From: Escherichia coli
GTDB taxonomy: Bacteria; Pseudomonadota; Gammaproteobacteria; Enterobacterales; Enterobacteriaceae
Assembly (NCBI RefSeq): GCF_003018115.1
Contig: NZ_CP027457.1
Reading direction: 5' to 3' (one strand)
DNA length: 64,000 bases
The notes under the pieces are model-generated. The model was not told the DNA's origin, made no database searches, and saw nothing but the letters and a program-made list of their open reading frames with translations. Shown piece by piece: positions 15,815 through 16,201 of this stretch. Positions within the stretch are counted from its first letter, which is position 1. Each line of letters opens with the position of its first letter. The position numbers and the translations under genes are program-made.

Positions 15815-16201
15815 TTAACGATACTTCTGGTGATAGGCGTTGCGGGTCGTTTTCAGTTGCTCTGCGGCAGCCTGCGCTTCTTTTACTTTACCTTCATTTG
15901 CCAGCTTCAGCGCGTCGTCAATCTGACCGACCAGAATATCGAAACCGTGGCGGAAGTCTTTCATTTCCGGGCTGTCTGGCGATTTTCCTTCCAGCTTCGG
16001 CGGCGTTGCTTTTTGCGCATCCAGCGCCGCGGCACGCATTTTGGTTAACGCGTCTTTGACTTGCGCCGCGTTATCGGCTTTTTCGACCACTTTTAAATTG
16101 TCGTTGAGGGTTTCCATATTGTCTTCAAGATCAGCGGCAAACGACGCCGAACTGAATACCAACGAGGAGACTGCAAGAATAGCTAACAGGCTTTTTCGCA
16201 T
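15815..16201 (-). CDS. cybC: cytochrome b562 precursor (soluble, periplasmic)
   Basis: 128-aa ORF with signal peptide ending ...[19 protein letters not shown] and haem-ligand region; recognised sequence. Confidence 0.85.

Follow-up and report, generated by a model that had tools for sequence, protein, structure and literature searches.

The cybC gene in the Escherichia coli DNA analyzed here, a window of 64,000 nucleotides from contig NZ_CP027457.1, is an ordinary, intact chromosomal gene of a non-K-12 strain that lies between pmbA (tldE) and nrdG, and its contrast with the K-12 gene is real; we put the probability of this reading at roughly 0.93. An intact cybC is the ancestral and near-universal state in E. 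coli, while K-12, a natural cybC mutant, is the exception. The finding of an intact gene is correct but ordinary, and the allele in the window holds no new biology. It matters little, except to remind readers that cybC in the K-12 reference is atypical and that nearly all other E. coli strains keep the gene. There are practical consequences: K-12-based interaction and annotation resources omit cybC, which is missing, for example, from the STRING MG1655 set (PMC6561927), and anti-BRIL reagents bind the native cytochrome b562 that non-K-12 expression hosts produce (PMC13041623).

The cybC reading frame and its product

The list of open reading frames contained cybC as an uninterrupted ATG-to-stop frame on the minus strand (Table 1). 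Its product matched the Cytochrom_B562 family profile (PF07361) with 117.2 bits (E = 5.8e-34), relative to a gathering score cutoff of 30 bits, and the match covered profile positions 1 to 102 of 102 and residues 24 to 128 of the protein. This match is far beyond chance and, as judged from sequence, places the protein in the family. The product also aligned over its full length with PDB chain 9tmp_A ("Soluble cytochrome b562"), a precursor of 128 residues to which it was identical at 126 positions. The two substitutions relative to 9tmp_A were I39V and D72G (I17V and D50G in mature numbering), such that the window protein carries Val39 and Gly72. The preliminary description of this DNA had reported a full-length, 128-amino-acid cytochrome b562 precursor with an intact signal peptide and mature domain, and it had named alignment with the characterized protein as a way to check this; its reading frame coordinates proved to be exact, and both the Pfam score and the end-to-end alignment, which differed only at those two positions, bear it out.

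The mature, 106-residue PDB chains 1apc, 256b, and 1qpu aligned to residues 23 to 128 of the product. Since these chains begin at residue 23, residues 1 to 22 were assigned to the signal peptide, which has a basic n-region (Met-Arg-Lys), a 13-residue hydrophobic core with a mean Kyte-Doolittle value of 2.47, and a c-region that ends in Ser-Phe-Ala. The mature N terminus reads ADLEDN. Met7 and His102 (mature numbering), the axial heme ligands, were both present in the window protein and were invariant across an alignment of five alleles.

Based on the pathway established for this protein, the 22-residue signal peptide would send the precursor of this strain to the periplasm, and signal peptidase would cleave it after Ser-Phe-Ala, i.e., after Ala22. 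The 106-residue mature protein would then probably adopt the four-helix-bundle fold, as suggested by its 126/128 identity to 9tmp_A and its alignment to 256b, and would hold one noncovalently bound heme b via Met7 and His102. In this form, it would be expected to act as a small, soluble electron carrier. We infer the expression, export, heme loading, and function of cybC in this strain in the same manner; the physiological function of cytochrome b562 is still described as unknown (PMC3349551, PMC6561927).

The exact 128-amino-acid window protein is already public as WP_001232246.1, which is found on at least 1,000 contigs and belongs to the UniRef A0A0J3WFI9_ECOLX cluster; the proteins of E. 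coli F8111-1SC3 and of strain A31 under this accession number do not differ from that of the window. Over 901 bp spanning cybC, F8111-1SC3, the O169:H41 strain 2014EL-1345-2, and LR882990 were 100% identical to the window, and the same group was 99.6% identical to it over 25 kb elsewhere. These identities indicate that the window derives from a non-K-12 E. coli strain that is close to the O169:H41 group.

The cytochrome b562 of the B lineage (9tmp_A; 256b, 1apc, and 1qpu; WP_001232240.1 in BL21(DE3)) shares with the window protein a length of 128 amino acids, an identical signal peptide, the mature N terminus, and the heme ligands, and its gene likewise lies between pmbA and nrdG. It differs in having Ile39 and Asp72, where the window protein has Val39 and Gly72. 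These differences are conservative and leave 126 of 128 residues identical, and V39I and G72D are common natural polymorphisms of E. coli cytochrome b562 (PMC6561927). A more distant "soluble cytochrome b562," PDB entry 4er9_A, shares the signal peptide, the 106-residue domain, and the Met and His ligand positions, whereas its mature domain carries many substitutions relative to the window protein (221.8 bits, versus 256.8 bits for 9tmp_A).

Table 1. Features at and around cybC, in window coordinates
Feature	Coordinates	Strand	Basis
cybC, coding for the cytochrome b562 precursor (128 codons and a stop codon)	15815..16201	-	Open reading frame list, Pfam, PDB match, cybC annotation in genomes with 100% identity
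Signal peptide coding region, residues 1 to 22	16136..16201	-	Residues 1 to 22 same as in 9tmp_A; mature PDB chains start at residue 23
Mature 106-residue cytochrome b562 carrying the axial heme ligands Met7 and His102	15818..16135	-	Alignment to 1apc and 256b; ligands checked in the sequence
26 bp GTGAGCAATGCGAAAAAGCCTGTTAG, present here and deleted in K-12	16183..16208	-	Pairwise and five-way alignments
AAGGAA resembling a Shine-Dalgarno sequence, 7 nt before the ATG and also present in K-12	16209..16214	-	Read from the sequence; putative function
Imperfect palindrome, ~125 to 136 nt, most of the pmbA-cybC spacer	16215..16350	.	Fold of -79.3 kcal/mol, z = -8.5
Hairpin with 14-bp stem and 4-nt loop, between convergent nrdG and cybC	15775..15806	.	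RNA fold of -23.3 kcal/mol, z = -6.9

The K-12 deletion and its annotation

The MG1655 reference (NC_000913.3) lists cybC (b4236), at 4459488..4459855, as a 368-nt pseudogene, in agreement with the preliminary description, and the literature likewise lists cybC as a pseudogene in this strain (PMC3349551). When the window was aligned with the MG1655 gene, a single indel was observed, namely, a 26-bp deletion in K-12 that appeared in both the pairwise and the five-way alignments (Table 1), so the reference gene is not an intact copy identical to that of the window. The deletion removes the start codon, the 7-nt spacer that separates it from the Shine-Dalgarno sequence, and the first 16 nt after it, which comprise codons 2 to 6 plus 1 nt of codon 7. 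Its coding part is thus 19 nt, and 387 - 19 = 368, which matches the length of the K-12 pseudogene. The K-12-type junction, in which AAAAAAGGAA is joined directly to CTATTCTTGCAG, is absent from the window, and the 26 bp are kept.

The K-12 and window alleles occupy orthologous loci with the same flanking genes, the same upstream repeat, and the same Shine-Dalgarno sequence. They differ in that K-12 lacks the ATG and codons 2 to 6 and encodes Asp72, Ser122, and Lys125, where the window encodes Gly72, Ala122, and Gln125. Across the 368 nt that the two alleles share, 19 differences were found (94.8% identity); 17 codons were affected, and the changes in 14 of these were synonymous only. This mostly synonymous pattern is what a recent lesion in a constrained gene would be expected to leave. 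The O157:H7 allele encodes the mature sequence of the K-12 remnant yet retains its full 5' end, so the deletion is a derived, recent event of the K-12 lineage. By eye, no microhomology was seen at the deletion ends in the alignments. Among the papers searched for the origin of the K-12 lesion, none explicitly described a 26-bp deletion; they gave only the statement that the gene is a pseudogene (PMC3349551).

The annotations of K-12 cybC are inconsistent between PGAP and the curated NC_000913.3 record, and "pseudogene" is the judgment of the curated reference. In PGAP-annotated K-12 records, such as NZ_CP032667.1 (MG1655; positions 1530 to 1895 of the extracted locus), the remnant is listed as a 121-amino-acid "cytochrome b562" coding sequence (WP_023649327.1) without a pseudogene flag, and this coding sequence starts at an ATT codon 2 nt past the deletion junction and AAGGAA. 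The contrast with K-12 could therefore be one of annotation only, with the K-12 allele still working from an alternative start and no functional difference between the strains. An in-frame TTG that opens a 115-amino-acid reading frame offers a second possible start for such an allele, and its mature coding part is undamaged and specifies the same protein as the O157:H7 allele. However, the deletion takes away the ATG together with the signal peptide n-region (Met-Arg-Lys); the ATT codon, at only 2 nt after AAGGAA, is too close for normal initiation; and the in-frame TTG leaves just MVFSSASFA before the cleavage site, a stretch that is not long enough to serve as a Sec signal. The first TTG that is well spaced from the Shine-Dalgarno sequence opens an out-of-frame reading frame of 27 amino acids. 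The curated reference and the literature both call the gene a pseudogene (PMC3349551), and the cybC signal is far lower in MG1655 than in REL606 (PMC3446290). The K-12 remnant thus has no plausible start, and, judging from general signal peptide anatomy, none of these codons would give a normal Sec signal peptide. We consider a working K-12 allele to be the least probable of the readings discussed here.

Intact and deleted cybC across E. coli

The K-12 deletion junction was present in 355 of 5,426 complete E. coli genomes, all at 100% identity, in a megablast search with a 54-mer that joined the 27 nt on either side of the junction, a query that can seed only where the junction is present. We checked ~115 distinct records, drawn from the top 60 of the list and another 60 sampled across it. 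Where the strain of a sampled carrier was identifiable, it was a K-12 derivative, and the remaining records had K-12-sized genomes. The carriers included MG1655, BW25113, DH5alpha, DH1, C600, J53, MC4100, TG1, S17-1, and O16:H48 isolates. The band of 90 to 95% identity in the 901-bp search also comprised 355 genomes, and an identity in this range is what a 26-bp gap plus single nucleotide polymorphisms (SNPs) would predict.

cybC DNA was present in 5,423 of the 5,426 genomes. In BL21(DE3), O157:H7 strain NE 1092-2, and the wild rodent isolate A31, the 387-nt cybC coding sequence is intact and has the same 183-nt spacing from pmbA. The suggestion in the preliminary description that this strain may keep a functional copy is thus right insofar as the gene is intact, but this does not set the strain apart, as it is the normal E. 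coli state, and a functional product is what its sequence would predict. A 54-mer spanning the 26 bp was also used to count intact 5' ends. It matched only 453 genomes and was dropped as a frequency estimate; the count is low because a megablast hit requires an exact word of 28 nt, which one SNP (e.g., CGA/CGT at codon 2) is enough to destroy.

An independent inactivation of cybC was observed in another lineage. In E. coli CFSAN027343 (NZ_CP037943.1; positions 1 to 2810 of the extracted locus), the IS66-family element ISEc22, with its tnpA, tnpB, and transposase genes, lies in the 5' part of cybC and leaves two annotated partial pseudogenes. NZ_OY754853.1 exhibited the same pattern of truncated cybC matches as CFSAN027343.

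Gene neighborhood, upstream palindrome, and expression

cybC is flanked by pmbA (tldE; minus strand, 16385..17737) and by the convergent nrdD-nrdG pair on the plus strand, and this nrdD-nrdG/cybC-pmbA synteny is that of annotated E. coli chromosomes. On the nrdG side, a hairpin lies 8 nt past the cybC stop codon (Table 1). The terminator scan did not list this hairpin because no T-run follows it on either strand; it is possible that it serves both convergent genes as a shared, noncanonical transcription end structure. On the other side of cybC, just past the pmbA stop codon, a G+C-rich hairpin, GCGCGACAGGTCGCGC, occupies positions 16361 to 16386 and has a T-run on the plus strand only, antisense to pmbA and cybC. 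In the direction from pmbA to cybC, the hairpin is followed by UAUAAACUAAAAAAUU, which makes it look like a poor terminator, so that read-through from pmbA into cybC is conceivable.

Most of the spacer between pmbA and cybC is filled by an imperfect palindrome that ends ~20 nt before the cybC ATG, directly upstream of the ribosome-binding site. The palindrome belongs to a small, multicopy family of repeats that could be detected at a median of 3 places per E. coli genome and at no more than 6, and in 1122 genomes its best match reached only 60 to 80% identity. At the cybC locus, it was conserved in K-12, BL21, O157:H7, and A31 in the five-way alignment, and K-12 and B strains carry it alike. 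With a length of at least 136 nt and 5 places in K-12 records, the palindrome would fit the RSA repeats of K-12, which are 150 or 151 bp long and occur in 6 copies (PMC5172473); on the basis of size and copy number, we regard RSA as a candidate identity. An ERIC/IRU identity was rejected: local alignment of the palindrome to the 44-nt ERIC core, i.e., the ERIC1R and ERIC2 primer sites with primer sequences confirmed from the literature, scored 15, relative to 13.6 ± 2.2 for shuffled sequences.

A cybC reading frame that is intact yet silent or cryptic in this strain, without meaningful expression, would agree with our consensus scan of positions 15700 to 16500, which found no sigma-70-like promoter on either strand, and with the very stable palindrome (-79 kcal/mol) that fills the leader to within ~20 nt of the ATG. 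The scan, however, relied on crude matching to a consensus and does not show that a promoter is absent. Moreover, BL21(DE3) has the same upstream region, including the palindrome, and both expression of the gene and its protein product have been seen in B-lineage strains (PMC3446290, PMC13041623). Specifically, cybC is among the genes that are much more highly expressed in the B strain REL606 than in MG1655 (PMC3446290), and native, red, heme-loaded cytochrome b562 of the canonical E. coli expression hosts copurifies with an anti-BRIL Fab, a contaminant that is removed by using a T7 Express cybC deletion strain (PMC13041623). The mostly synonymous nature of the substitutions relative to K-12 and the retention of the gene in 5423 of 5426 genomes also argue against a silent gene. 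We therefore consider it very improbable that cybC is silent here, if marginally less so than that the K-12 allele still works; neither the sequence anatomy nor the expression literature supports either alternative to an ordinary intact gene that contrasts with a disrupted one in K-12.

The palindrome might belong to the cybC leader and control expression through pmbA read-through, mRNA stabilization, or occlusion. We regard this as unlikely, though less so than a silent gene. If true, it would offer a way to learn under which circumstances E. coli produces cytochrome b562.

An Rfam scan of positions 15000 to 17000 found nothing at cybC or its leader. In the nrdD-nrdG intergenic region (15161 to 15286), the naRNA4 family (RF02564) gave matches on both strands that were below threshold (37 to 41 bits, relative to a gathering score of 59.5), a pattern that REP/BIME palindromic units lying between these two genes would be expected to produce. 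Farther along the window, at positions 39001 to 64000, the best-matching genomes list an "RNA-guided endonuclease InsQ/TnpB family protein" among the core genes aidB, cpdB, cycA, and ulaA.
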